This document shows, in pieces, positions 8,773 to 55,695 of a stretch of DNA of 64,000 nucleotides. Position numbers and translations under genes: made by a program. The DNA comes from Escherichia coli (GTDB taxonomy: Bacteria; Pseudomonadota; Gammaproteobacteria; Enterobacterales; Enterobacteriaceae): assembly GCF_030013205.1 (NCBI RefSeq), contig NZ_CP122648.1, one strand, 5' to 3'. The notes under the pieces are model-generated. The model was given only the letters and a program-made list of their open reading frames with translations. It ran no database searches and was not told where the DNA came from. Within the stretch, counting starts at the first letter, position 1. Every line of letters starts with the position of its first letter.

Positions 8773-11199
8773 TTAAACCTTTTCGATCTGGACAAGATTG
8801 CTGTGCGACGGGTTTCCCTTTGCCAGCGGTGAAGGGCGGTGAGAGGTCAGAATATTGATACTGCCGCCGTGATCGACCCGGTCACCAAACATATCCGCTT
8901 TAAGCCACGCACCTTGCCCGATGGCGGTAACGCCAGGCAGAATACGCGGAGTCACTTTTGCGGCAATCAGCATTTCTCCATTATTGTTAAATACCCGCAC
9001 GGTATCGCCATGACGGATACCGCGTGCCTGAGCATCAATAGGGTTGATCCACACCTCTTGTGGGCAGGCCTGCTGTAACACATCAATATTGCCGTAGCTG
9101 GAGTGGGTACGCGCTTTGTAGTGGAAGCCCGTTAGCTGCAGTGGATAGGTTTTCCGCAGGGGATCGTCCCAGCCATCAAAACCTGGGGTATACGCAGGAA
9201 GGGGATGAATAATTTCATCTTTTTTCAATTCCCAGGTATCCGCAATCGTCGCCAGTCGTTCAGAATAAATTTCGATTTTCCCCGAAGGTGTTTTCAACGG
9301 GTTTGCCTGTGGATCTTCACGGAATGCGCGGAAAGCGACGTAGTGTTCTTCCGGGCATTTTTTCTTAAAGATCCCGGTCGTTTTCATCTCCTCGTAGTCG
9401 GGCATCTCAGGGTTACGTTCCTTCGTTTTCGCATGGAGATATTTGATCCATTCGTGCTGACTGCGGCCTTCAGTAAAGGTTTGATAAACGTCTGGTCCTA
9501 AGCGTTTGGCGACTTCGCTCAGCATCCAGTAGATGGGTTTGCGTTCAAATTTTGCTGAGGTTGCGGGTTGGGCGAGGATCACATAGCCCATATTCCCGGC
9601 AGATTCATGAGAGATAAGGTCTTCTTGCTCTGTTGGCATCAGGTCGGGCAACAGGATATCGCAATACTTAGCCGAGGCAGTCATGAAGTGGTCAATGCCA
9701 ACAATCATCTCGCACTTGCTGTCATCCTGAAGCACCTCATGGGTGTGATTGATGTCGCCATGTTGATTGATCAATGTGTTACTGGCGTAGCACCATAAAA
9801 ACTTGATGGGGACATCCAGTTTTTCTTTTCCACGAACACCATCACGGGTCGCGGTCATTTCCGTACCGTGGTCGATGGCATCTGTCCATGTAAAGACGGA
9901 AATCTGCGTTTTAACAGGATTCTCGAGCATCGGGAACCATTCTACCCCCAGATCCCAGCTACCTTCGCGTACACCTGAGTTGCCGCCGTTTATGCCGACG
10001 TTACCGGTGAGAACGGAAAGCATGGCAATAGCGCGGGACGTTTGTTCGCCGTTGGAGTGTCGTTGTGGCCCCCAACCCTGACAAATATAAGCAGGTTTTG
10101 CTGAACCGATCTCTCGTGCCAACTGGATAATTTTTTCTGCCGGGATGCTGGTGATTTTTGCTGCCCATTCCGGCGTTTTAGCTATGCCGTCAGGCCCTTC
10201 GCCCAGAATATAGGCTTTATAATGCGCGTTACGTGGTGCGTTGGCGGGCAGCGTTTTTTCATCGTAACCAACACAATATTTGTCGAGAAATGGCTGATCG
10301 ACCATGTTTTCAGTAATCAGTACCCAGGCAATCGCACAGGCCAGTGCGCCATCGGTGCCTGGGCGAATTGGCAGCCATTCATCTTCACGCCCGGCAGCAG
10401 TGTCGTTATAACGTGGATCGATGACGATCATGCGTGCGTTTGAACGTTCTCGGGCTTGCTCGACGTAGTAAGTGACACCACCGCCGCTCATCCGGGTTTC
10501 TGCCGGGTTATTTCCGAACATAACGACCAGTTTCGTATTGGCTATATCATCCGGGCTGTTGCCATCATTGGCACCGAACATATAACTCATTGCGGCACTG
10601 ATTTGAGCGGTACTGTAGCTGCCATAGCGACTGAGAAAACCACCGCAAGAGTTCATCAGACGGTACGGGACGTTCGAGTTGGTGATGTTTCCGCCATCTA
10701 CGCCTGTTCCGTACAGGACATGTACAGCCTCATTGCCGTATTCTTTCAGGATCCGCCGAAGATTATCACTGATGGTATCCAGGGCTTCATCCCAACTTAT
10801 CCGTTCAAATTTACCTTCACCGCGCTTGCCGACGCGCTTCATGGGATATTTCAACCTATCAGGATGATTCATCCGTCGGCGGATAGAGCGCCCGCGTAAA
10901 CACGCTCGAACCTGATGATTACCGTAGACGTCGTCACCTGTCGTATCAGACTCCACCCAGTACACGGTGTCATCTTTCACATGCAAACGTAACAGACAGC
11001 GGCTCCCGCAGTTAACGGTGCAGGAACTCCAGACCGCTTTCTCTTCTACCGGTGCCTCTGCCGCTCGGACCATTTGGGAAAATGGCAGAGTGAAAGCACT
11101 GCTTGCCAGCGCGAGACTGCCAAGTGCGGAGGTTTTCATCAGACTTCTACGGCTGATTTCAGCCTTCATGAGCGCCTCTGTGGTATGGATTTTCATCAT
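8773..11199 (-). CDS. ynfF: molybdopterin oxidoreductase catalytic subunit YnfF (DmsA paralogue, Tat signal)
   Basis: ~807-aa ORF with twin-arginine signal (SRRSLMKTSALG) and N-terminal Cys cluster; tandem paralogue of ynfE. Confidence 0.9.
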   Translation of the reverse strand: MMKIHTTEALMKAEISRRSLMKTSALGSLALASSAFTLPFSQMVRAAEAPVEEKAVWSSCTVNCGSRCLLRLHVKDDTVYWVESDTTGDDVYGNHQVRACLRGRSIRRRMNHPDRLKYPMKRVGKRGEGKFERISWDEALDTISDNLRRILKEYGNEAVHVLYGTGVDGGNITNSNVPYRLMNSCGGFLSRYGSYSTAQISAAMSYMFGANDGNSPDDIANTKLVVMFGNNPAETRMSGGGVTYYVEQARERSNARMIVIDPRYNDTAAGREDEWLPIRPGTDGALACAIAWVLITENMVDQPFLDKYCVGYDEKTLPANAPRNAHYKAYILGEGPDGIAKTPEWAAKITSIPAEKIIQLAREIGSAKPAYICQGWGPQRHSNGEQTSRAIAMLSVLTGNVGINGGNSGVREGSWDLGVEWFPMLENPVKTQISVFTWTDAIDHGTEMTATRDGVRGKEKLDVPIKFLWCYASNTLINQHGDINHTHEVLQDDSKCEMIVGIDHFMTASAKYCDILLPDLMPTEQEDLISHESAGNMGYVILAQPATSAKFERKPIYWMLSEVAKRLGPDVYQTFTEGRSQHEWIKYLHAKTKERNPEMPDYEEMKTTGIFKKKCPEEHYVAFRAFREDPQANPLKTPSGKIEIYSERLATIADTWELKKDEIIHPLPAYTPGFDGWDDPLRKTYPLQLTGFHYKARTHSSYGNIDVLQQACPQEVWINPIDAQARGIRHGDTVRVFNNNGEMLIAAKVTPRILPGVTAIGQGAWLKADMFGDRVDHGGSINILTSHRPSPLAKGNPSHSNLVQIEKV

Positions 11200-16078: not shown

Positions 16079-16405
16079 ATGATTAAAACAACGTTACTAT
16101 TTTTTGCTACTGCGCTGTGTGAAATTATTGGATGCTTTCTGCCCTGGTTGTGGTTAAAACGAAACGCCAGTATCTGGCTGTTGCTTCCGGCGGGGATTTC
16201 TCTGGCACTGTTTGTCTGGTTGTTAACGTTGCATCCTGCGGCGAGTGGGCGTGTTTACGCGGCTTATGGTGGCGTTTATGTCTGCACGGCGTTGATTTGG
16301 CTGCGTGTTGTGGATGGCGTGAAACTGAGTCTTTATGACTGGACGGGGGCGTTGATTGCGCTTTGCGGCATGTTGATCATTGTTGCGGGCTGGGGGCGCG
16401 CGTAA
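16079..16405 (+). CDS. ynfA: UPF0060 inner-membrane protein YnfA
   Basis: ORF 16070..16405; start at ATG 16079 ([26 protein letters not shown]), 108 aa, 4 TM. Confidence 0.85.
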
Positions 16406-23791: not shown

Positions 23792-23849
23792 TAAAAAGGG
23801 CAGCAGAGCAGTCACGGAGTAAAACTGATACCGCCAAACGTCACCAGAA
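23792..23849 (-). ncRNA. dicF: DicF small RNA (ftsZ-targeting)
   Basis: Reverse complement reads TTTCTGGTGACGTTTGGCGGTATCAGTTTTACTCCGTGACTGCTCTGCTGCCCTTTTT, between ydfC and dicB as in K-12. Confidence 0.75.
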
Positions 23850-25381: not shown

Positions 25382-25612
25382 ATGCTTAAAACTGACGCTC
25401 TTTTGTATTTCGGTTCAAAAACAAAACTTGCACAAGCAGCAGGTATTCGTTTGGCTTCGCTTTATAGCTGGAAAGGGGATTTAGTTCCCGAAGGTCGCGC
25501 GATGCGTCTACAGGAGGCATCTGGCGGGGAGCTTCAGTATGATCCCAAAGTTTATGATGAATATCGTAAGACGAAGCGGGCGGGGCGGTTGAACAATGAA
25601 AATCACTCCTGA
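25382..25612 (+). CDS. dicC: Cro-like regulator DicC
   Basis: 76-aa ORF MLKTDALLYFGSKTKLAQAAGIRLASLYSWKG... Confidence 0.9.
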   Translation: MLKTDALLYFGSKTKLAQAAGIRLASLYSWKGDLVPEGRAMRLQEASGGELQYDPKVYDEYRKTKRAGRLNNENHS

Positions 25613-25919
25613 ACAGGCTCGTGAGGCTCTGGATGCCTGGATATGTCGACCAGGAATGACACAGGAGCAGGCGACGATATTAATCACTGAAGCATTCTGG
25701 GCTTTGAAAGAGCGCCCGAACATCGATGTTCAGCGTGTCACATATGAAGGTGGCGCGATTGATCAGCGAGCGCTTGGCGTTATCTGGTCATCACCTGACG
25801 GAGAAATACGTCGCTACGACAGTCGCCTAAACATAATCTGTCGCGAGTGCCGGAAGAGCGAAGTTATGCAGCGCATACTGGCTTTCTATCAGGGTAATTT
25901 TCAGGACGTGGCGCAGTGA
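25596..25919 (+). CDS. hypothetical prophage early-region protein
   Basis: 107-aa ATG-initiated ORF overlapping the dicC stop by 17 nt; its TGA overlaps the GTG start of the next gene (GTGAGTG). Confidence 0.45.
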   Translation: MKITPEQAREALDAWICRPGMTQEQATILITEAFWALKERPNIDVQRVTYEGGAIDQRALGVIWSSPDGEIRRYDSRLNIICRECRKSEVMQRILAFYQGNFQDVAQ

Positions 25920-26362
25920 GTGCACCGGCAACCATTCTTGATATGTGCTGTGGCAGCCGCATGTTCTGGTTCGATAAGTCTGACGAACGGGCGATATTCA
26001 GCGATATCAGAAAAGAAGGATACACATTACGCAATGGGAGACGCTTGATTATCAGCCCTGACATTATCGCAGATTTTCGTGCATTATCATTTGCAGACGC
26101 ATCTTTTTCGATGGTTGTATTAGACCCTCCGCATCTTGAGAGTGTTGGTGATAACGCCTGGATGGGAAAGAAATATGGACGGCTGAATAAAGATGCCTGG
26201 CGTGATGATTCGCGACAGAGATTTAAAGAAGCCTTTCGGGGGTTGAGGCCGCACGGCGTTCTGATTTTTTAATGGAATGAAACGCAAATACCGGTAAGCC
26301 AGATTCTGGCACTGACAGACAGAAAACCTGTTATCTGTCAACGAACAGGGAAAAAACGATAA
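25916..26362 (+). pseudogene. small SAM-dependent methyltransferase-like gene interrupted by an in-frame TAA
   Basis: LDMCCGS (motif I-like) then VVLDPPH (motif IV-like, DPPY/NPPY class) and LRPHGVLIF; TAA at 26270-26272; same frame stays open 29 more codons (WNETQIPVSQILALTDRKPVICQRTGKKR) with no start codon of its own. Confidence 0.5.
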
Positions 26363-26694
26363 AACCCACTGGATTATTTTTATGAAAGAGGCATCCAGTG
26401 AGTAGATTCGTAAGGCTACAGATACGTATATCTGAATAATTAAATTCAGTTCTGTAAATAAAATTTAATCCTTAACCGGATGGATTTCTGCACCCTCAGA
26501 ACATCAGGAGGCCGCCCGAAAGGGCGGTAGTGAAATGCGAATGTTCAAAATTATTATTGAAACGGGAATAGCTGGTGGAGATTTTGAGGATGTATTCGAA
26601 GTGGACGATGACGCAACACCTGAGGAAATTCATGACGGAGCATAAGAAATTTTCTTTAACTACTGCAATTACTCATACCACGAAATAAAAGACG

Positions 26695-26886
26695 ATGAGG
26701 AAGAACAAAGTGGCTGATTTTTGTTCAGCTAAATATAACATCAGTTTTGAAGAGCGGGATGAACTATTAATGGACTATGGTGAGTTACGCGGTGGAAGTG
26801 CTGCTGATGTCGAATCCTAGCGTGATGACTATGAAGCGGGAAAAACTCCGGTCGAAGCATATTGTGATGAGTGGGGCGATGAATGA
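26695..26886 (+). pseudogene. short acidic ORF with single in-frame TAG
   Basis: MRKNKVADFCSAKYNISFEERDELLMDYGELRGGSAADVES-TAG(26818)-RDDYEAGKTPVEAYCDEWGDE-TGA; downstream segment has no start codon. Confidence 0.35.
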
Positions 26887-27170
26887 GCGAGATTAATTAT
26901 CAGGAAGGGCATGAAACGGCGGGGCAAGCAAAACCAGTGGCATGGCGATATCGCTACGTGAAAAAAGGCGTTACGGACTTTCAGGGGAAGTAGTGGTCTG
27001 GTGACTGGAAATATGTACCGAAAAAAGAGGATTGTAACGACAGGCCGAACTATCAAATTCAGGCCTTATTCACTGCCTCACCAGTCCCAGTTACATCAGA
27101 AGAACTGGTTAAAGCTGTGCACTTTTATGAACAACTAAAACGCGAAAATCCACCAACATCCGGCAACTAG
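26883..27170 (+). pseudogene. short ORF with single in-frame TAG
   Basis: MSEINYQEGHETAGQAKPVAWRYRYVKKGVTDFQGK-TAG(26991)-WSGDWKYVPKKEDCNDRPNYQIQALFTASPVPVTSEELVKAVHFYEQLKRENPPTSGN-TAG; downstream segment lacks a start. Confidence 0.35.
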
Positions 27171-27424
27171 ATTAATGGATTAACTATGTCGGTTAAACGA
27201 CCAGCCAACTGAAAAAGCGGAAACCTGATTACAGGTTGCCAGATAAGGCAATGAGCTACCTGGCGCGGAACGGACTGATAAGTATGGGGAATGTTTTACG
27301 ATGAACCTTTAGACTAAAGAGTTTGTAACGCTATGTAAGTGATTTTTTCTGGTTTAGATATTTATATGTCCGGCCAAATTGAGGTGTGTTTAAATGTAAT
27401 TGCACATTGATTGTAGGAGGAATA

Positions 27425-27604: not shown

Positions 27605-27938
27605 ATACAGCGAACTCCATTGGTTTAGTTGGATATTTACTGTGCTGGACAAAAACGGTTTGCGGGGAAATCTTAGTTAAGTAGAATGACTGCGGGTGCT
27701 TGAGGCTATCTGCCTCGGGCATGGACACCAACGGCAGATAGAGAAAAGCCCCAGTTAACATTACGCGTCCTGCAAGACGCTTAACATTAATCTGAGGCCA
27801 ATTTCATGCTAGACACATGTAGGTTAGCCTCTTACGTGCCGAAAGGCACGGAGAAGCAGGCTATTGTTAACACCAAGTTGTAATGTCCCCTTTGAACCAT
27901 TCTAAAATGTCCCCAGACAATTCTCTGGGGGATTTTTC

Positions 27939-29252
27939 ATGATCAAAGAGACTGTTACGATGAGTCATAAGGAACTCCACCGACTTCAGATTATTCAGGA
28001 ACAAGCTGCGGCACGCATTGGCATTTCTATTCGGCAGGTTAAACGTCTGGTGCAACGGTATAGAAATGAAGGGCCTTCTGGTCTGGTTTCCCACCGACGT
28101 GGAAAGCGTCCTAATAATTCCTTTTCTACTGAATTCAGAGCAACAGTAATTTCACTCCTCAAAGGCCGTTACGCTGATTTTGGACCTACGTTTGCGTGCG
28201 AAAAATTGCGCGAGATACACGGTTTATCTTTATCCGTTGAAACTCTCAGAAAGTGGATGATAGAAGAGGGGTTATGGCGTGAACGCCGTCGTAAAATTGC
28301 CCGTATATATCAACGCCGCATGCGACGACCATCTTACGGTGAACTGATCCAGATTGATGGCTCACCTCATGACTGGTTTGAAAATCGAGGCCCCAGATGT
28401 ACACTGATCGTTTTCATTGATGATGCCACCAGTGCGTTGATGGCGTTGCGTTTTGTGCCTGCTGAAACAACCCGGGCTTACATGGAAACCCTCCGGGGTT
28501 ACCTTAATGATCATGGCGTACCGCTCGCTCTCTACTCTGATAGACACAGTATATTCAGGGTAAATAACCCAGAGCGGGAAGGTGAGCTGACCCAGTTCAC
28601 TCGTGCGATAAAGACACTGGGCATCGAGCCAATCCATGCCAACAGCCCGCAGGCAAAAGGGCGGGTAGAGCGCGCCAATCAGACACTACAGGACAGGCTG
28701 GTCAAAGAAATGCGGCTTCAGAATATCAGTGATATTGAAACAGCAAATGCATGGTTGCCGACCTTTATTGAAGCCTATAACAACCGGTTCGCTACGTCGC
28801 CTCGTACTACTGATAATGCTCATCTTGATGTGCACCATTCTGAAGAGGAACTGGGTTATATCTTCAGCCTACAGGCGAAGCGCGTTCTGTCTAAAAATCT
28901 CACTTTCCAGTACAAAAGCAGTGCGTTTCAGGTACGCAGTGAGGGCCGGGGATATCGACTTAGGCATTCGGTTGTTACTGTATGCGAGAACTTTGACGGT
29001 GAAATTAACGTTCTGTATGACGGGAAAGCGCTGGGCTGGGAAAAGTATGTTGATGGCCCGGAGCCTATACCACTGGATGATGAAAAGAGTGTCCATGAAC
29101 GAGTGGATAATGCCCGTATTGATTTACGCTCAAAATACTATGTTAAACCTAAAGCTGACCATCCCTGGCTTACGCGCCGAACGCAAAGTCATCAGCAAGT
29201 TAAGCCCCCGAAGTTACCTAAAAAGAAGCCTGATCCCGATAAAAAAGATTGA
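27939..29252 (+). CDS. DDE transposase with N-terminal HTH and integrase-core (rve) domain, IS481/ISNCY-like
   Basis: 437-aa ORF; HTH IGISIRQVKRLVQRY; catalytic-looking residues in LIQIDGSPHD, LALYSDRHSIF and KGRVERANQTLQD; basic Lys/Pro-rich C-terminus. Confidence 0.8.
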   Translation: MIKETVTMSHKELHRLQIIQEQAAARIGISIRQVKRLVQRYRNEGPSGLVSHRRGKRPNNSFSTEFRATVISLLKGRYADFGPTFACEKLREIHGLSLSVETLRKWMIEEGLWRERRRKIARIYQRRMRRPSYGELIQIDGSPHDWFENRGPRCTLIVFIDDATSALMALRFVPAETTRAYMETLRGYLNDHGVPLALYSDRHSIFRVNNPEREGELTQFTRAIKTLGIEPIHANSPQAKGRVERANQTLQDRLVKEMRLQNISDIETANAWLPTFIEAYNNRFATSPRTTDNAHLDVHHSEEELGYIFSLQAKRVLSKNLTFQYKSSAFQVRSEGRGYRLRHSVVTVCENFDGEINVLYDGKALGWEKYVDGPEPIPLDDEKSVHERVDNARIDLRSKYYVKPKADHPWLTRRTQSHQQVKPPKLPKKKPDPDKKD

Positions 29253-34596: not shown

Positions 34597-34896
34597 AAAA
34601 ATTCCTTAATACTGATAACTTGGCGCACTATACACACGTTCCTGAAGAAAGCTATAGTTTTTTGATGGGGTTGAAGATGGCTGGATGTCTAAAATAAACA
34701 TTGCTTCATATGTTCAACTATGCGTTAATGATTGCGTCGGTTTGAAGAACAGACGATATACGAAGTAGTTTACTAAAGCAGTTCTCATTTCAGGTGTTAT
34801 TCACTTATTCCTTCTTTGAGTCTCTCCAATTAAGTACGAAGTCGTTTCTGTTATGCAAACCATTTATGCCGAAAGGCTCAAGTTAAGGAATGTAGA

Positions 34897-35112
34897 ATGT
34901 CAAATAAAATGACTGGTTTAGTAAAATGGTTTAACGCTGATAAAGGTTTCGGCTTTATTTCTCCTGTTGATGGTAGTAAAGATGTGTTTGTGCATTTTTC
35001 TGCGATTCAGAATGATAATTATCGAACCTTATTTGAAGGTCAAAAGGTTACCTTCTCTATAGAGAGTGGTGCTAAAGGTCCTGCAGCAGCAAATGTCATC
35101 ATTACTGATTAA
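34897..35112 (+). CDS. cspB: cold-shock protein CspB
   Basis: 71-aa [54 protein letters not shown]... Confidence 0.9.
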
Positions 35113-35475
35113 AATTCATCGCTCGTCTGTATACGATAACGAAGAAGGCTGATGCCTGAGTAGAGATACGGACAGAGTAGTGAATATTGGATCTCTTTAA
35201 TAAAAAGTAAGGAGGTCCAATACATGAAACAATGGCTAGCATATTTGGCAAAATCTTAATCAGGAAAAGTATGCTAACCATTGTGGTGAAGTGCAGGTTT
35301 GCTGAATGAATAGTTTTACAGCAGAAGCTAACTGCTGGCATGGCAAAACAAAGTGCGTAAGTGGATGACTCCCACAAAAAGCACCACAATCTCAAACCCG
35401 CTCAGGCGGGTTTTTTATTATCTGCTTTAAATATATTATTAAAATATAAAAAATACTTGTTACTAATAAAATCAA

Positions 35476-37421: not shown

Positions 37422-37782
37422 GGTAATATTAAATCGGAACATTTACATCGCGGAATGTAAAATTTAAATAAAAAGGACTCTTCCATGAGCCAAAATTCCT
37501 GAAATCTTAAGGGTAAGATAAAAGGTCTTAATCAGAATGACACGTTTTATTAATAAATAAAGCTATTCTTTCATTGCTGTGTTTTTCTTTACAAAAGTAA
37601 TCCTTGCTATGGGTGGTTAATCATGCGTTAATGGTGTTCTGGTTTGTTACAAATTTATCTGAAGCAGTCATTGTTATAATTTTATTATTTGTACCTCTTG
37701 AGATTTCCTTGTTGGTTTTTCTCTCTGATATTTTTTTCGGACCATTCTGCCCAAGGGCTAATTTCTTCAAAAGGTAATAATT

Positions 37783-37995
37783 ATGTCTAACAAAATGACT
37801 GGTTTAGTGAAATGGTTTAACCCTGAAAAAGGTTTTGGTTTCATCACGCCGAAAGATGGCAGCAAAGATGTGTTTGTCCATTTCTCAGCAATTCAGAGCA
37901 ACGATTTCAAAACATTAACTGAGAATCAGGAAGTTGAATTTGGTATTGAGAACGGACCTAAAGGTCCTGCCGCTGTTCATGTAGTGGCGCTTTGA
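37783..37995 (+). CDS. cspI: cold-shock protein CspI
   Basis: 70-aa [54 protein letters not shown]... Confidence 0.9.
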
Positions 37996-38197
37996 GGTAG
38001 ACAATATTACAAACCATATTCACTTTAGATGCCCGTGTTGTCATGGTTCCCAGTATAGAACATCATCTTTTGATGTTTCTGACATGAATCCTTTCGGGGC
38101 AAAATGTATCTTTTGTAAATCAATGATGATTACATTTGATAATATTTCACAATACTTAAATGCCAGCCGTCTGTCGTTGGATTTGAAAAAGTGAAAA

Positions 38198-40083: not shown

Positions 40084-40629
40084 ATGGAAGTCAACAAAAA
40101 GCAGCTGGCTGACATTTTCGGTGCGAGTATCCGTACCATTCAGAACTGGCAGGAACAGGGAATGCCCGTTCTGCGAGGCGGTGGCAAGGGTAATGAGGTG
40201 CTTTATGACTCTGCCGCCGTTATAAGATGGTATGCCGAAAGGGATGCTGAAATTGAGAACGAAAAGCTGCGCCGGGAAGTTGAAGAACTGCGGCAGGCCA
40301 GCGAGACAGATCTCCAGCCAGGGACTATTGAGTACGAACGCCATCGACTTACGCGTGCGCAGGCCGACGCACAGGAGCTGAAAAATGCCAGAGACTCCGC
40401 TGAAGTGGTGGAAACCGCATTCTGTACTTTCGTGCTGTCGCGGATCGCAGGTGAAATTGCCAGTATTCTCGACGGGATCCCCCTGTCGGTGCAGCGGCGT
40501 TTTCCGGAACTGGAAAACCGACATGTTGATTTCCTGAAACGGGATATCATCAAAGCCATGAACAAAGCAGCCGCGCTGGATGAACTGATACCGGGGTTGC
40601 TGAGTGAATATATCGAACAGTCAGGTTAA
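40084..40629 (+). CDS. nohA: terminase small subunit Nu1 (full length, lambda-like)
   Basis: 181-aa ORF MEVNKKQLADIFGASIRTIQNWQEQGMPVLRGGGKGNEVLYDSAAVIRWYAERD... Confidence 0.95.
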   Translation: MEVNKKQLADIFGASIRTIQNWQEQGMPVLRGGGKGNEVLYDSAAVIRWYAERDAEIENEKLRREVEELRQASETDLQPGTIEYERHRLTRAQADAQELKNARDSAEVVETAFCTFVLSRIAGEIASILDGIPLSVQRRFPELENRHVDFLKRDIIKAMNKAAALDELIPGLLSEYIEQSG

Positions 40630-42088
40630 CAGGCTGCGGCATTTTGTCCGCGCCGGGCTTCGCTCACTGTTCAGGCCGGAGCCACAGACCGCCGTTGAAT
40701 GGGCGGATGCTAATTACTATCTCCCGAAAGAATCCGCATACCAGGAAGGGCGCTGGGAAACACTGCCCTTTCAGCGGGCCATCATGAATGCGATGGGCAG
40801 CGACTACATCCGTGAGGTGAATGTGGTGAAGTCTGCCCGTGTTGGTTATTCCAAAATGCTGCTGGGTGTTTATGCCTACTTCATAGAGCATAAGCAGCGC
40901 AACACCCTTATCTGGTTGCCGACGGATGGTGATGCCGAGAACTTTATGAAAACTCACGTTGAGCCGACCATCCGTGATATTCCTTCGCTGCTTGCGCTGG
41001 CCCCGTGGTATGGCAAAAAGCACCGGGATAACACGCTCACCATGAAGCGTTTCACCAATGGTCGTGGCTTCTGGTGCCTGGGCGGTAAAGCGGCAAAAAA
41101 CTACCGTGAAAAGTCGGTGGATGTGGCGGGTTATGATGAACTTGCTGCTTTTGATGATGATATTGAACAGGAAGGCTCTCCGACGTTCCTGGGTGACAAG
41201 CGTATTGAAGGCTCGGTCTGGCCAAAGTCCATCCGTGGCTCCACGCCCAAAGTGAGAGGCACCTGCCAGATTGAGCGTGCAGCCAGTGAATCCCCGCATT
41301 TTATGCGTTTTCATGTTGCCTGCCCGCACTGCGGGGAGGAGCAGTACCTTAAATTTGGCGATAAAGAGACGCCGTTTGGCCTCAAATGGACGCCGGATGA
41401 TCCCTCCAGCGTGTTTTATCTCTGCGAGCATAATGCCTGCGTCATCCGCCAGCAGGAGCTGGACTTTACTGATGCCCGTTATATCTGCGAAAAGACCGGG
41501 ATCTGGACCCGTGATGGCATTCTCTGGTTTTCGTCATCCGGTGAAGAGATTGAGCCGCCGGACAGTGTGACCTTTCACATCTGGACGGCGTACAGCCCGT
41601 TCACCACCTGGGTGCAGATTGTCAAAGACTGGATGAAAACGAAAGGGGATACGGGAAAACGTAAAACCTTCGTGAACACCACGCTCGGTGAGACGTGGGA
41701 AGCGAAAATCGGCGAACGTCCGGATGCTGAAGTGATGGCAGAGCGGAAAGAGCATTATTCAGCGCCCGTTCCTGACCGTGTGGCTTACCTGACCGCCGGT
41801 ATCGACTCCCAGCTGGACCGCTACGAAATGCGCGTATGGGGATGGGGGCCGGGTGAGGAAAGCTGGCTGATTGACCGGCAGATTATTATGGGCCGCCACG
41901 ACGATGAACAGACGCTGCTGCGTGTGGATGAGGCCATCAATAAAACCTATACCCGCCGGAATGGTGCAGAAATGTCGATATCCCGTATCTGCTGGGATAC
42001 TGGCGGGATTGACCCGACCATTGTGTATGAACGCTCGAAAAAGCATGGGCTGTTCCGGGTGATCCCCATTAAAGGGGCATCCGTCTAA
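40604..42088 (+). pseudogene. terminase large subunit gpA, truncated after about 494 codons
   Basis: Lambda A-like N-terminal region (Walker A-like region, ...[14 protein letters not shown]) ends at a stop at 42086; full-length lambda gpA is about 641 aa. Confidence 0.85.
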
Positions 42089-42149
42089 GGGACGCTTCCT
42101 GAACAACATTAACGCGGTCAGTAAAACAGACTTTGCTGATAAGCGTGGT

Positions 42150-43904
42150 ATGCGTTATGTGCGGGTTAACGCTCCTGCAGGTGCAACATCTGGAAAATAT
42201 TACCCTGTTGTTGTTATGCGTTCTGCTGGCTCAGTAAGCGAACTGGCATCAAGGGTCATTATCACCACGGCACCGCGAACCGCAGGCGATCCGATGAATA
42301 ACTGCGAGTTTAACGGATTTGTTATGCCTGGTGGCTGGACTGACAGGGGGCGTTATGCTTATGGAATGTTCTGGCAATATCAAAACAATGAACGAGCCAT
42401 CCACTCAATAATGATGAGTAATAAGGGCGATGATTTGCGCTCTGTGTTCTATGTTGATGGCGCTGCTTTCCCTGTTTTTGCGTTTATCGAAGATGGCCTG
42501 TCAATATCCGCACCTGGTGCTGATCTCGTTGTTAATGATACGACCTATAAGTTTGGGGCAACAAATCCAGCGACTGAATGTATCGCGGCGGACGTTATCC
42601 TTGATTTTAAGAGTGGGCGTGGTTTTTATGAGTCTCATTCGTTAATCGTTAACGATAACTTGTCGTGCAAAAAACTTTTTGCCACAGACGAAATTGTAGC
42701 GCGTGGTGGTAATCAGATTCGAATGATAGGTGGGGAGTATGGTGCATTATGGCGTAATGATGGCGCTAAAACTTACCTGCTGCTTACCAATCAAGGTGAT
42801 GTTTATGGTGGCTGGAATACATTAAGACCGTTTGCTATTGATAACGCAACCGGCGAACTGGTTATTGGAACCAAACTGTCCGCAAGTCTGAACGGTAATG
42901 CATTAACAGCAACAAAGCTGCAAACGCCAAGACTGGTTTCTGGTGTTGAGTTTGATGGTTCCAAAGATATTACTTTAACCGCCGCGCATGTGGCTGCTTT
43001 TGCCAGAAGGGCAACGGATACATATGCCGATGCGGATGGTGGCGTTCCCTGGAATGCCGAATCAGGCGCTTACAATGTCACCCGCTCTGGCAACAGCTAT
43101 ATTCTGGTTAACTTCTATACCGGAGTCGGAAGTTGCCGGACATTGCAGATGAAGGCGCATTACAGAAATGGAGGTCTGTTCTACCGTTCCTCAAGAGATG
43201 GCTATGGTTTTGAGGAAGACTGGGCAGAAGTTTATACCTCGAAAAATCTTCCACCAGAAAGCTACCCAGTCGGTGCACCAATCCCGTGGCCATCAGATAC
43301 CGTTCCGTCTGGTTATGCCCTGATGCAGGGGCAGACTTTTGACAAATCTGCTTACCCGAAACTTGCAGCCGCTTATCCGTCAGGCGTGATCCCTGATATG
43401 CGTGGCTGGACGATTAAGGGCAAACCTGCCAGTGGTCGGGCCGTATTGTCTCAGGAACAGGACGGCATTAAATCGCACACCCACAGCGCCAGCGCATCCA
43501 GTACGGATTTGGGGACGAAAACCACATCGTCGTTTGATTACGGCACTAAATCCACGAATAACACCGGGGCGCATACCCATAGTGTTAGCGGTACGGCTGC
43601 TTCAGCCGGTGCACATACCCATTCGATAACATTTGTTTCAGGTGGCACCAAAGGTGCTCCGGGAAGTGGATCACCTGATTATTCTAAATACAGTGTTAAC
43701 ACTTCTTCTGCAGGCGCTCATACGCACTCTGTATCGGGTACTGCTGCAAGCGCAGGTGCACACGCACATACTGTAGGTATTGGTGCGCATACGCACTCGG
43801 TTGCGATTGGTTCACATGGACACACCATCACCGTTAACGCTGCTGGTAACGCGGAAAACACCGTCAAAAACATCGCATTTAACTATATTGTGAGGCTTGC
43901 ATAA
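42150..43904 (+). CDS. side tail fibre C-terminal remnant with HxH repeat tip domain
   Basis: 584-aa ORF; frame is open upstream to 42063 without a start; C-terminal [20 protein letters not shown]... repeats; followed by tfa with ATGA-type overlap. Confidence 0.8.
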
Positions 43905-44479
43905 TGGCATTCAGAATGAGTGAACAACCACGGACCATAAAAATTTATAATCTGCTGGCCGGAACTAATGAATTTATTGGTGAAGGTGATGCATATATTC
44001 CGCCTCATACAGGTCTGCCAGCAAACAGTACCGATATTGCACCGCCAGATATTCCGGCTGGCTTCGTGGCTGTTTTCAACAGTGATGAGTCATCGTGGCA
44101 TCTCGTTGAAGATCATCGGGGTAAAACGGTTTATGACGTGGCTTCCGGCGACGCGTTATTTATTTCTGAACTCGGTCCGTTACCGGAAAATGTTACCTGG
44201 TTATCGCCGGAAGGGGAGTTTCAGAAGTGGAACGGCACAGCCTGGGTGAAGGATACGGAAGCAGAAAAACTGTTCCGGATCCGGGAGGCGGAAGAAACAA
44301 AAAACAACCTGATGCAGGTAGCCAGTGAGCATATTGCGCCGCTTCAGGATGCTGCAGATCTGGAAATCGCAACGGAGGAAGAAATCTCGTTGCTGGAAGC
44401 ATGGAAAAAGTATCGGGTATTGCTGAACCGTGTTGATACGTCAACTGCACAGGATATTGAATGGCCAGCACTGCCGTAG
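43904..44479 (+). CDS. tfaQ: tail fibre assembly protein
   Basis: 191-aa [57 protein letters not shown]... Confidence 0.9.
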
Positions 44480-44576
44480 GGTAAAACATATAAATTCTAT
44501 AATTAGATGTATCTTTCCATTTACGGCAAGGAAGGGGGCTTGGAAGACGTAAAGCATCTCACACCGAGATTATTTT

Positions 44577-45167
44577 TTATATGTCAGGTGTCTGAAGTTT
44601 TGCTTTGGCTCTTAAAATGGTTTGCCGCGAGGTTTTGAATTCCCGGGCAATGGCACTTATACTTACACCTGACTTAATTCGTTCGAATACCGCCTGTTTC
44701 TGTTCTTCATTTAACACAGGTGGTCGACCAAAACGTTTCCCTGCGCCGCGGGCACTTACTATCCCGGAATGAGTGCGTTCAAGTAAAAGGTCTCGTTCAA
44801 ATTCAGCGACTGCTGAAATTACTTGCATCATCATTTTTCCTGTTGGACTGGTCAGGTCAATGCCCCCCAATGCTAAGCAATGCACTCTGATACCTGTTTC
44901 GGTCAGTTGTTCCACTGTTTTCCTGATATCCATTGCATTACAACCAAGGCGATCCAGTTTTGTCACAATCAATTGATCACCACATTTCAGGCGAGCAAGC
45001 AACCGGTTAAAACCAGGACGCTCACTGGTTGCTGCTGAGCCGCTAATGTGTTCTTCGATTATTTGCTGAGGTTTGATTTTAAAACCTGCACTTTCGATTT
45101 CCCGGCGTTGATTTTCGGTGGTCTGATCCAGCGTTGATATCCGACAGTAAGCAAAAATTCGAGACAT
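44577..45167 (-). CDS. pinQ: serine recombinase DNA invertase Pin
   Basis: 196-aa [23 protein letters not shown]... with catalytic Ser in YCRIST and C-terminal HTH. Confidence 0.95.
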
Positions 45168-45483
45168 AGTGAGACTCTATACGAAATTGGTGTTCATATC
45201 ATAATGCATCTCAGAAAATAATTATGATTATTTTTGTGCATATTTGTATGTACACGTTCGAAAATAAACGAATGCGTATGCAACCCCGTAATTTTGGTGA
45301 GACCCAAAATCGATTTTGTGAAAAATGGCTTTAACTCGGTTTGTTTTTCGAGTTCCGGGCGGACTCAAGGAAGAAGAATAGTGTTGCGTGTTATTTTAAC
45401 CAGATTTCAAGTTGTTTGGTCGTGGAAAAGTGGAGCAAAATGTTGTTAAAGTGGAAAAATGATAAAAAAGTAAGTTTATTATA

Positions 45484-55381: not shown

Positions 55382-55429
55382 GCTCCGTTTAACATTCATT
55401 GAGAAAACTGATGCTACTGTGTCAACGAT

Positions 55430-55527
55430 CCGTTATCAGTGCAGGAAAATGCCTGTTAGCGTAAAAGCAAAACACAAATCTATCCATGCAAGCATTCACC
55501 GCCGGTTTACTGGCGGTTTTTTTTCGC
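55430..55527 (+). ncRNA. candidate small RNA ending at an orphan terminator (possibly MgrR)
   Basis: Strong + strand terminator CCGCC-ggtttact-GGCGG-T8 at 55497..55527 with no upstream ORF in the dgcZ-mgtS intergenic region; 5' end not defined. Confidence 0.4.
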
Positions 55528-55599
55528 CGTCATAAAAATCAGGCCCCTTGTACACAGTTGTAACAAGGGGCCGGTTAGGTGAGGGATTATCTCCGTTCA

Positions 55600-55695
55600 T
55601 TAGTCATCCCATTTGTGGCTGAAATACGCGGCCAGAAAACCAGAAAATAAAATTATTCCCAGTACGGCCATAAAAACATTCATATTACCCAGCAT
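55600..55695 (-). CDS. mgtS: small membrane protein MgtS (YneM, 31 aa)
   Basis: Manual translation MLGNMNVFMAVLGIILFSGFLAAYFSHKWDD with GGAGG 7 nt upstream; below the ORF-track cutoff. Confidence 0.8.
   Translation of the reverse strand: MLGNMNVFMAVLGIILFSGFLAAYFSHKWDD

Follow-up and report, generated by a model that had tools for sequence, protein, structure and literature searches.

A truncated side-tail-fibre gene of the cryptic prophage Qin carrying seven histidine boxes of the T4 gp37/lambda Stf type

The truncated fibre gene and its place in Qin

The window, which is the whole stretch of 64,000 nucleotides of Escherichia coli DNA analysed here (contig NZ_CP122648.1 of assembly GCF_030013205.1), carries the cryptic prophage Qin, identified from the annotation and from Rfam matches. 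The prophage opens with int, xis, exo, dicB, DicF, dicA/C, relBE, hokD/sok, the Q antiterminator, and csp genes, and continues with the lysis genes, nohA, a truncated terminase gene, a truncated tail-fibre gene, tfaQ, pinQ, ydfK, ynfT, and ydfJ'. The head and tail genes are all absent from the Qin locus of the window. The features of the fibre region are collected in Table 1.

Table 1. Features of the terminase and tail-fibre region of Qin, in window coordinates; residues are those of the 584-aa ORF.
Feature	Position (nt)	Strand	Residues (aa)	Length, match, or basis
Truncated terminase large subunit gene, lambda gpA-type	40604..42088	+		494 aa; Pfam GpA_ATPase, GpA_nuclease
Deletion junction terL::stf	42086..42087	.		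2-bp TA microhomology; three-way alignment with 2H10 terL and stf
Side-tail-fibre remnant (stfQ-type)	42086..43904	+		phrog_295 tail fiber, E = 8e-159 (PHROGs)
Shaft module akin to the C-terminal trimerisation domain of T4 gp34	42540..42839	+	131-230	PF21446, E = 1.3e-27
Shaft module common to phage Mu tail fibre S/S'	42987..43274	+	280-375	PDB 8JU3, E = 4.9e-21
Phage Tail Collar domain, base of the tip	43272..43415	+	375-422	PF07484, E = 2.6e-12
Needle region with seven His boxes	43470..43826	+		PF03335 Phage_fiber repeat, 33.3 bits (Pfam), on a His box
His box 1, KSHTHS	43470-43487	+	441-446	Translation
His box 2, GAHTHS	43566-43583	+	473-478	Translation
His box 3, GAHTHS	43608-43625	+	487-492	Translation
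Hypervariable loop between boxes 3 and 4, putative distal head and receptor-specificity loop	43623..43712	+	492-521	Entropy of 68 tips
His box 4, GAHTHS	43713-43730	+	522-527	Translation
His box 5, GAHAHT	43755-43772	+	536-541	Translation
His box 6, GAHTHS	43782-43799	+	545-550	Translation
His box 7, GSHGHT	43809-43826	+	554-559	Translation
Conserved C-terminal strand	43827..43901	+		Near-identical in T4, lambda, 2H10, and K-12
tfaQ, tail-fibre assembly chaperone	43904..44479	+		191 aa; Caudo_TAP, E = 3.6e-43; phrog_105
pinQ, serine invertase	44577..45167	-		196 aa; Pfam Resolvase + HTH_7

The terminase and fibre genes meet at a deletion junction. Homology to the stf gene of phage 2H10 (blastn) starts at 42086, at about codon 511 of 1117, and the deletion, 18-19 kb in size, removed everything from the last ~147 of the 641 terminase codons (the 3' quarter of that gene) through about codon 510 of stf. 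Homology to terL stops at the same point, where the joining of the two genes gave rise to the TAA stop codon of the truncated terminase, and stf continues in the +1 frame with respect to terL, which makes the fusion an out-of-frame one. Its GpA_nuclease match covers just positions 2-177 of the 294 in the profile, and PGAP reports the gene as "missing C-terminus".

The first in-frame start codon of the fibre remnant is the ATG at 42150, which together with the stop codon at 43902-43904 delimits an ORF of 584 aa. Compared with the Stf of phage 2H10, a protein of 1117 aa, this ORF covers aa 533-1117 at 96% identity, and it represents the C-terminal 52% of a lambdoid side tail fibre of that length. 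The sequence-only reading had called it a remnant, and this comparison bears the term out, as does PGAP, which annotates the gene as a pseudogene "missing N-terminus". A prophage tail fibre N-terminal domain was not found in the ORF by Pfam, and the protein has neither the N-terminal tail-attachment part nor the full-length shaft of a functional Stf.

What is left of the shaft is a mosaic of Mu S/S'-like and T4 gp34-like parts. Besides the Pfam match to the gp34 module, aa 174-245 match the gp34 structures 4UXE and 5NXF and the Mu S structure 5YVQ, all with E values of about 1e-11 (phmmer, PDB). The stretch at aa 280-375 is homologous to the Mu S/S' fibre of 8JU3, and within it PF12604 (gp37_C, aa 295-364) scores 21.8 bits, just under the cut-off of 22.5 bits. 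The collar domain that follows has its aligned counterpart in the collar of 2XGF, the crystallised T4 gp37 tip.

For the ancestor as it was before the deletion, phage 2H10 (LR595862) offers the best model available. Its Stf is alike across the whole remnant, and its genes have the same stf-tfa-invertase-ydfK-like arrangement; unlike the window, it also possesses the N-terminal 532 aa of the fibre and all head and tail genes. Another instructive relative is the StfQ of K-12 (b1547, 320 aa), which lies in the same Qin locus (nohA ... stf' tfaQ pinQ ydfK) and has the same seven boxes with their flanks. K-12, however, underwent a different and larger deletion that placed stfQ directly after nohA, left no terL fragment, and spared just 320 aa of the fibre; the shaft upstream of the collar also differs, and so does the head insert, which has an unrelated sequence with 17 aa more than that of the window.

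Of 5426 complete E. coli genomes, just 14 have the terL::stf junction of the window. A 3.3-kb query (42000-45300) is 100% identical to chromosomes of swine ETEC and O139 E. coli, and the 14 deletion carriers are 99.9-100% identical over it, for which reason the open reading frame of 584 codons is no gauge of decay. The window documents a lineage-specific deletion allele of Qin found in swine ETEC and O139 strains.

The histidine boxes and the family of the tip

The translation of 42150-43901 on the + strand contains seven HxH units, with their histidine pairs at aa 443/445, 475/477, 489/491, 524/526, 538/540, 547/549, and 556/558. The sequence-only reading had counted at least six within 43560-43840, and exactly six do lie there. 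Its account of the extent was too short: the array starts 90 nt upstream, at 43470, and spans the last 144 residues of the protein rather than ~100. The last 150 aa hold 14 of the 18 histidines of the 584-aa protein. When the whole protein was shuffled, seven HxH units were reached in 0 of 100,000 trials, and when only the last 150 aa were shuffled, in 2 of 100,000 (mean 1.2 units). The array of seven boxes is far beyond chance.

The same reading had described the boxes as mirrored by repeats in the DNA. A repeat search did return one weak 20-nt direct-repeat family (four copies, 70-85% identity), which is an echo of the protein repeat, the DNA copies themselves being divergent. The 18-nt units that encode the boxes have 8-15 of their 18 bases in common (61-83% identity). 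Even clearer is the case of two identical 17-aa peptides, whose coding 51-mers match at 34 of 51 bases (67%), agree at 6 of 17 third positions, share no exact match longer than 8 nt, and switch between the AGY and TCN families of serine codons. This divergence, together with the codon-family switches, indicates that the repeat is upheld at the protein level and does not stem from a recent DNA duplication. A recent tandem duplication or a contingency repeat was ruled out by the codon-level divergence of the copies, and the His-box repeat is, judging from these codon comparisons, a feature of the protein under purifying selection.

Homology to a solved structure then gave the array its meaning. 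Residues 370-584 align end to end with chain residues 27-242 of 2XGF (phmmer against all PDB chains, E = 6.3e-89), and all seven histidine pairs are conserved, so that the resemblance to the HxH receptor-binding tip of T4, which had earlier been proposed from the repeats, turns out to be direct homology. In a four-way alignment the tip of the window is 74% identical to T4 gp37, 78% to Ur-lambda Stf, and 91% to the Stf of phage 2H10, and 14 of 14 box histidines are invariant among the window, phage 2H10, lambda, and T4; an alignment with the T4 and lambda tips had been suggested as a check. Successive boxes lie 32, 14, 35, 14, 9, and 9 residues apart in the window and 32, 14, 37, 14, 9, and 9 in T4 gp37 (H883/885 to H998/1000), the sole difference falling between boxes 3 and 4, across the distal head.

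These data also dispose of the notion that the units are a chance or low-complexity tract rich in histidine, or a slippage-prone tandem DNA repeat, unrelated to the fibre fold. The region is indeed rich in Gly, Ser, Ala, Thr, and His, and the 20-nt repeat family exists, but the shuffles, the conservation of box positions and spacing with T4 gp37, the irregular spacing of the units, and the saturated synonymous sites of the DNA copies speak against this explanation. Scarcely any credence is left for it.

The tip of T4 gp37 (2XGF; residues 811-1026) and that of the window are the same module of about 215 aa, consisting of a collar, a needle with seven boxes, a head, and a conserved C-terminus, with 70-74% identity between them and a chaperone gene directly downstream in both. 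The window differs from T4 in its head loop (aa 492-521), which has another sequence and is 2 residues shorter, in the remainder of the protein, which is lambdoid and Stf-like, and in the state of the gene, which a deletion has reduced to a remnant within a cryptic prophage. Ur-lambda has the same stf-tfa order at the right end of its late operon and a tip 67-78% identical to that of the window, and TfaQ is 95% identical to lambda Tfa. Lambda Stf, for its part, has eight HxH boxes, one more than the window, the addition being an IGAHQHPVV unit. It also has an additional FDYGTKTT repeat and a head insert of greater length, the interval between boxes 3 and 4 measuring 48 aa against 35 aa in the window, and no invertase adjoins the lambda genes.

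A tip of about 215 aa with a downstream chaperone has been described as a family that T4 and lambda share with over 200 further enteric phages (PMC9659904). In the present search the tip was present in 657 phage records, T4-like, lambda-like, and Felix-O1-like phages among them, and the homologues carry 5-8 His boxes. In the gp37 needle, seven iron atoms are coordinated by the HxH histidines along the trimer (PMC6957217, PMC11705849), and H929/H931, which form box 3 in T4, are essential (PMC6957217). Membership of the window tip in the T4 gp37/lambda Stf-type family is supported by these alignments. We assign a probability of roughly 0.93 to the reading that the HxH array represents His boxes that serve as metal ligands in a receptor-binding tip of the gp37/Stf type, located in a passenger stf remnant of Qin. 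An annotation may with confidence call the segment a gp37/Stf-type tip, with seven putative iron-ligand His boxes, within the pseudogenised stf of Qin. The family having been described already, the finding is correct but ordinary, and beyond the correct annotation it has little importance.

The head loop and a proposed working of the tip

Variability was assessed on 68 aligned homologous tips drawn from 1493 database matches. Eight of the 14 histidine columns are invariant among the 68, the other six having H in 63-67 of them, and column entropy is high at aa 493-520 alone. Variation among homologues is confined to the ~26-30 residues between boxes 3 and 4. The same picture emerged from the comparison of the remnant with 2H10 Stf, in which 18 of the 22 substitutions and the sole gap fall at aa 488-521; the head loop of 2H10 (aa 1024-1053) is unrelated in sequence to that of the window, which differs likewise from those of T4, lambda, and K-12 StfQ. 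The 105-nt segment that codes for the head of the window recurs, across 618 genomes, both in fibres of full length and in remnants.

The window loop corresponds to residues 932-965 of T4 gp37, the specificity region (PMC9659904, PMC6957217), where the divergence of the T4- and lambda-based family of receptor-binding proteins is concentrated (PMC9659904). The pattern fits a conserved structural scaffold with an exchangeable specificity cassette, and the head allele at aa 492-521 would be one of many natural cassettes of this kind between conserved flanks. Residues critical at the T4 tip, N937, G938, and G940 among others (PMC6957217), are mostly changed in the window. Because these residues are largely different, and because a loop of other sequence and 2 residues shorter leads one to expect a different specificity, the receptor of the window tip is probably not that of T4. 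Cassettes of this kind can be transferred to the fibres of T4 or lambda when host range is to be engineered, with modest practical value.

Structure prediction was also applied to the tip. An AF2 monomer of the 212-aa tip, built from an alignment of 17 sequences, was a low-confidence model (mean pLDDT 50.8, pTM 0.17), as was a (GGGGS)6-linked trimer built from nine concatenated homologues (pLDDT 31.5). A Foldseek search of the PDB with this low-confidence monomer (pLDDT 50.8) returned 0 matches. A poor monomer is to be expected for an obligate, metal-bound, and intertwined trimer, and the fold is assigned from the 70-74% identity to a solved structure, not from the AF2 models.

How the tip would work can be sketched after the T4 structure. 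Three chains, which the Tfa chaperone encoded directly downstream would help to fold, would extend along a thin needle, form a small distal head, and then run back. At each of seven levels of the needle, the HxH pairs of the three chains would contribute six histidines holding one iron ion, so that a column of metal would staple the interdigitated trimer. The ~30 residues between boxes 3 and 4 would form the distal head, which would contact the bacterial receptor and set the host range. For the tip of the window, we infer trimer formation, iron binding, and receptor binding by analogy with T4.

The adjoining invertase and the role of the remnant

The start of tfaQ overlaps the stop codon of stf, and a gap of only 97 bp separates tfaQ from pinQ. 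A serine invertase adjoining tail-fibre and tfa genes is also found at the e14 StfE/StfP P segment (PinE/PinQ), at the Mu G segment, and at the P1 C segment. The site of the e14 P segment, TTGGTTTGGGAGAAGG, gave no match at up to 3 mismatches, and the hix/gix core, AAACCNNGGTTT, gave chance matches elsewhere only. Around the fibre locus no meaningful inverted repeats were detected, and an alternative stf'/tfa' pair on the opposite strand was not found at the locus. An invertible tail-fibre switch was ruled out on these grounds, namely the lack of crossover sites, inverted repeats, and alternative fibre genes. Unlike the e14, Mu, and P1 switches, the window is devoid of an invertible segment, and the family of the tip differs as well; pinQ is an orphan invertase, with no local segment to invert.

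The ATG at 42150 is the codon of an internal methionine of Stf, Met533, and its Shine-Dalgarno context is poor. A scan for promoters and terminators gave counts at chance level for both, and a translation start of its own, in a late operon beside tail genes, is missing from the remnant, which follows the truncated terL as an out-of-frame fusion. Judging only from the absent start context and promoter, the remnant would not be expressed, although read-through of the Qin late operon combined with initiation at ATG 42150 may lead to expression. The remnant is most likely a passenger, that is, an intact-looking but unused spare part that would be open to recombination with incoming phages.

A different role can be envisaged by analogy with e14, in which the host would keep the remnant because it is expressed with TfaQ and masks an outer-membrane receptor from incoming phages. 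The precedent is StfE2, a tail-fibre chimera of a cryptic prophage that is reported to arise after PinQ-driven inversion and to block the adsorption of T2 (PMC12529663). The presence of pinQ beside the locus and the 584 uninterrupted codons agree with such a use, and so does the existence in many E. coli of other deletion alleles that retain the tip and tfa, including one, on 480 contigs, in which terL(1-82) is joined in frame to the tip as a protein of 348 aa (P0081). If masking took place, the many independent deletion alleles keeping the tip and TfaQ would reflect selection. However, the window fusion is out of frame and has no good ribosome-binding site or promoter, and a trimer in the cytoplasm would have no obvious signal peptide or route of export. 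The retention of the tip across alleles is a matter of ascertainment, the tip itself having been the search query, and selection deduced from its recurrence in many fusion proteins was rejected on this account. Moreover, the StfE2 tip belongs to a different, gp53-like family, its mechanism rests on docking, and the study concerns e14, with no mention of StfQ or TfaQ. Use by the host is thus very improbable.

A less remote idea, which we regard as tentative and rather unlikely as the role of the remnant, is that it acts as a donor of cassettes: the flanks formed by the His boxes would provide homology by which lambdoid or T-even phages could swap in the head allele and change their host range. 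Against this stand the divergence of the repeated boxes, whose longest exact match of 8 nt is too short for efficient intragenic exchange, and the fact that no recombinant was observed in this analysis. Such a donation would also be a by-product of evolution, not a function in itself, and it is compatible with the remnant being a passenger. In its favour, the window allele, 2H10, and K-12 combine near-identical flanks with abruptly different loops, the head segment recurs in complete and truncated fibres alike, and the tip is common to unrelated groups of phages (PMC9659904). Temperate phages are, furthermore, known to acquire DNA from defective prophages, Qin included (PMC3945230).

Terminase–tip junctions in Qin and in other E. 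coli

The allele of the cryptic prophage Qin in which a deletion joins the terminase gene terL to the side-tail-fibre gene stf is rare, as the junction is found in 14 of 5426 complete E. coli genomes, and its carriers, among those listed, are swine ETEC/O139. K-12 has a different Qin allele, in which nohA is directly followed by stfQ (320 aa). Upstream of the T4-type tip, the fibre shaft of the remnant is a mosaic (see table).

In other E. coli, the database proteins P0081 and P0002 are in-frame chimeras of a terminase N-terminus and the receptor-binding tip, and they match the window from 40604 onward and at 43257-43901. P0081 (348 aa, on 480 contigs) consists of terL residues 1-82 joined to the collar and the needle. 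Homologues of the tip are also fused to portal, ClpP, DUF1441, gpK-like and ParB fragments, and this variety implies many independent deletions with an endpoint just upstream of the tip. Selection may be the cause of so many deletions stopping at this point; alternatively, the survey of fusions used the tip itself as the query sequence, and this choice alone might account for the recurrence of tip-retaining deletions.

Features of the fibre locus and Rfam matches in the window
Feature	Position	Strand	Remarks
terL::stf deletion junction	42086-42087		terL part 40604-42088; 2-bp TA microhomology; frames do not match across the junction
gp34-type trimerisation domain	within shaft, 42540-43274		PF21446; present in Mu S too
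Mu S/S'-like segment	within shaft, 42540-43274		8JU3, E = 5e-21
pinQ	44577-45167	-	orphan serine invertase
IS009 (RF02111)	44247-44445	+	Rfam, 221.7 bits, full length; inside 3' part of tfaQ
DicF	23798-23849	-	Rfam gathering-level
sok	27694-27865	+	Rfam gathering-level
cspA-type thermoregulators (two)	34736-35128 and 37638-38022	+	Rfam gathering-level; upstream of cspB and cspI
STnc560	55393-55606	+	Rfam gathering-level; beyond prophage, near mgtS/mgtT

The 17-residue repeat of the needle

A 17-aa peptide made of two His boxes separated by 11 aa occurs once in the ascending half of the needle (window 43566-43616) and again, unchanged, in the descending half (43713-43763). Because the DNA encoding the two copies is only 67% identical and the serine codons are switched between AGY and TCN, the repeat appears to be an ancient internal duplication held identical at the protein level. 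Compared with window 43566-43763, the homologue P0083 lacks box 3, the entire head (the variable loop) and box 4, and at the site of the loss it reads 17 residues, not spelled out here, followed directly by AHTVGIG. This form looks as if the two repeated segments had recombined, and, as P0083 derives from one Logan-assembly contig, it may be an assembly artefact.

The invertase, Rfam matches and genes annotated as broken

No local target sites were found for pinQ. According to a 2025 paper, PinQ inverts the P segment carried by e14, a different cryptic prophage, to give StfE2, which was reported to block T2 adsorption (PMC12529663). Regarding the Rfam matches, DicF, sok and the two cspA-type thermoregulators are the usual Qin complement, and the sequence of this prophage is presumably what the IS009 family was made from.

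The strain NZ_CP062203 is identical to the window at 42000-45300, and its annotation was transferred to window positions by collinearity. It lists ynfF and ynfA as frameshifted (~8776-11197 and ~16080-16405, respectively), several genes of the Qin early region as broken (25596-27303), and a truncated ISNCY transposase (~27959-28981).
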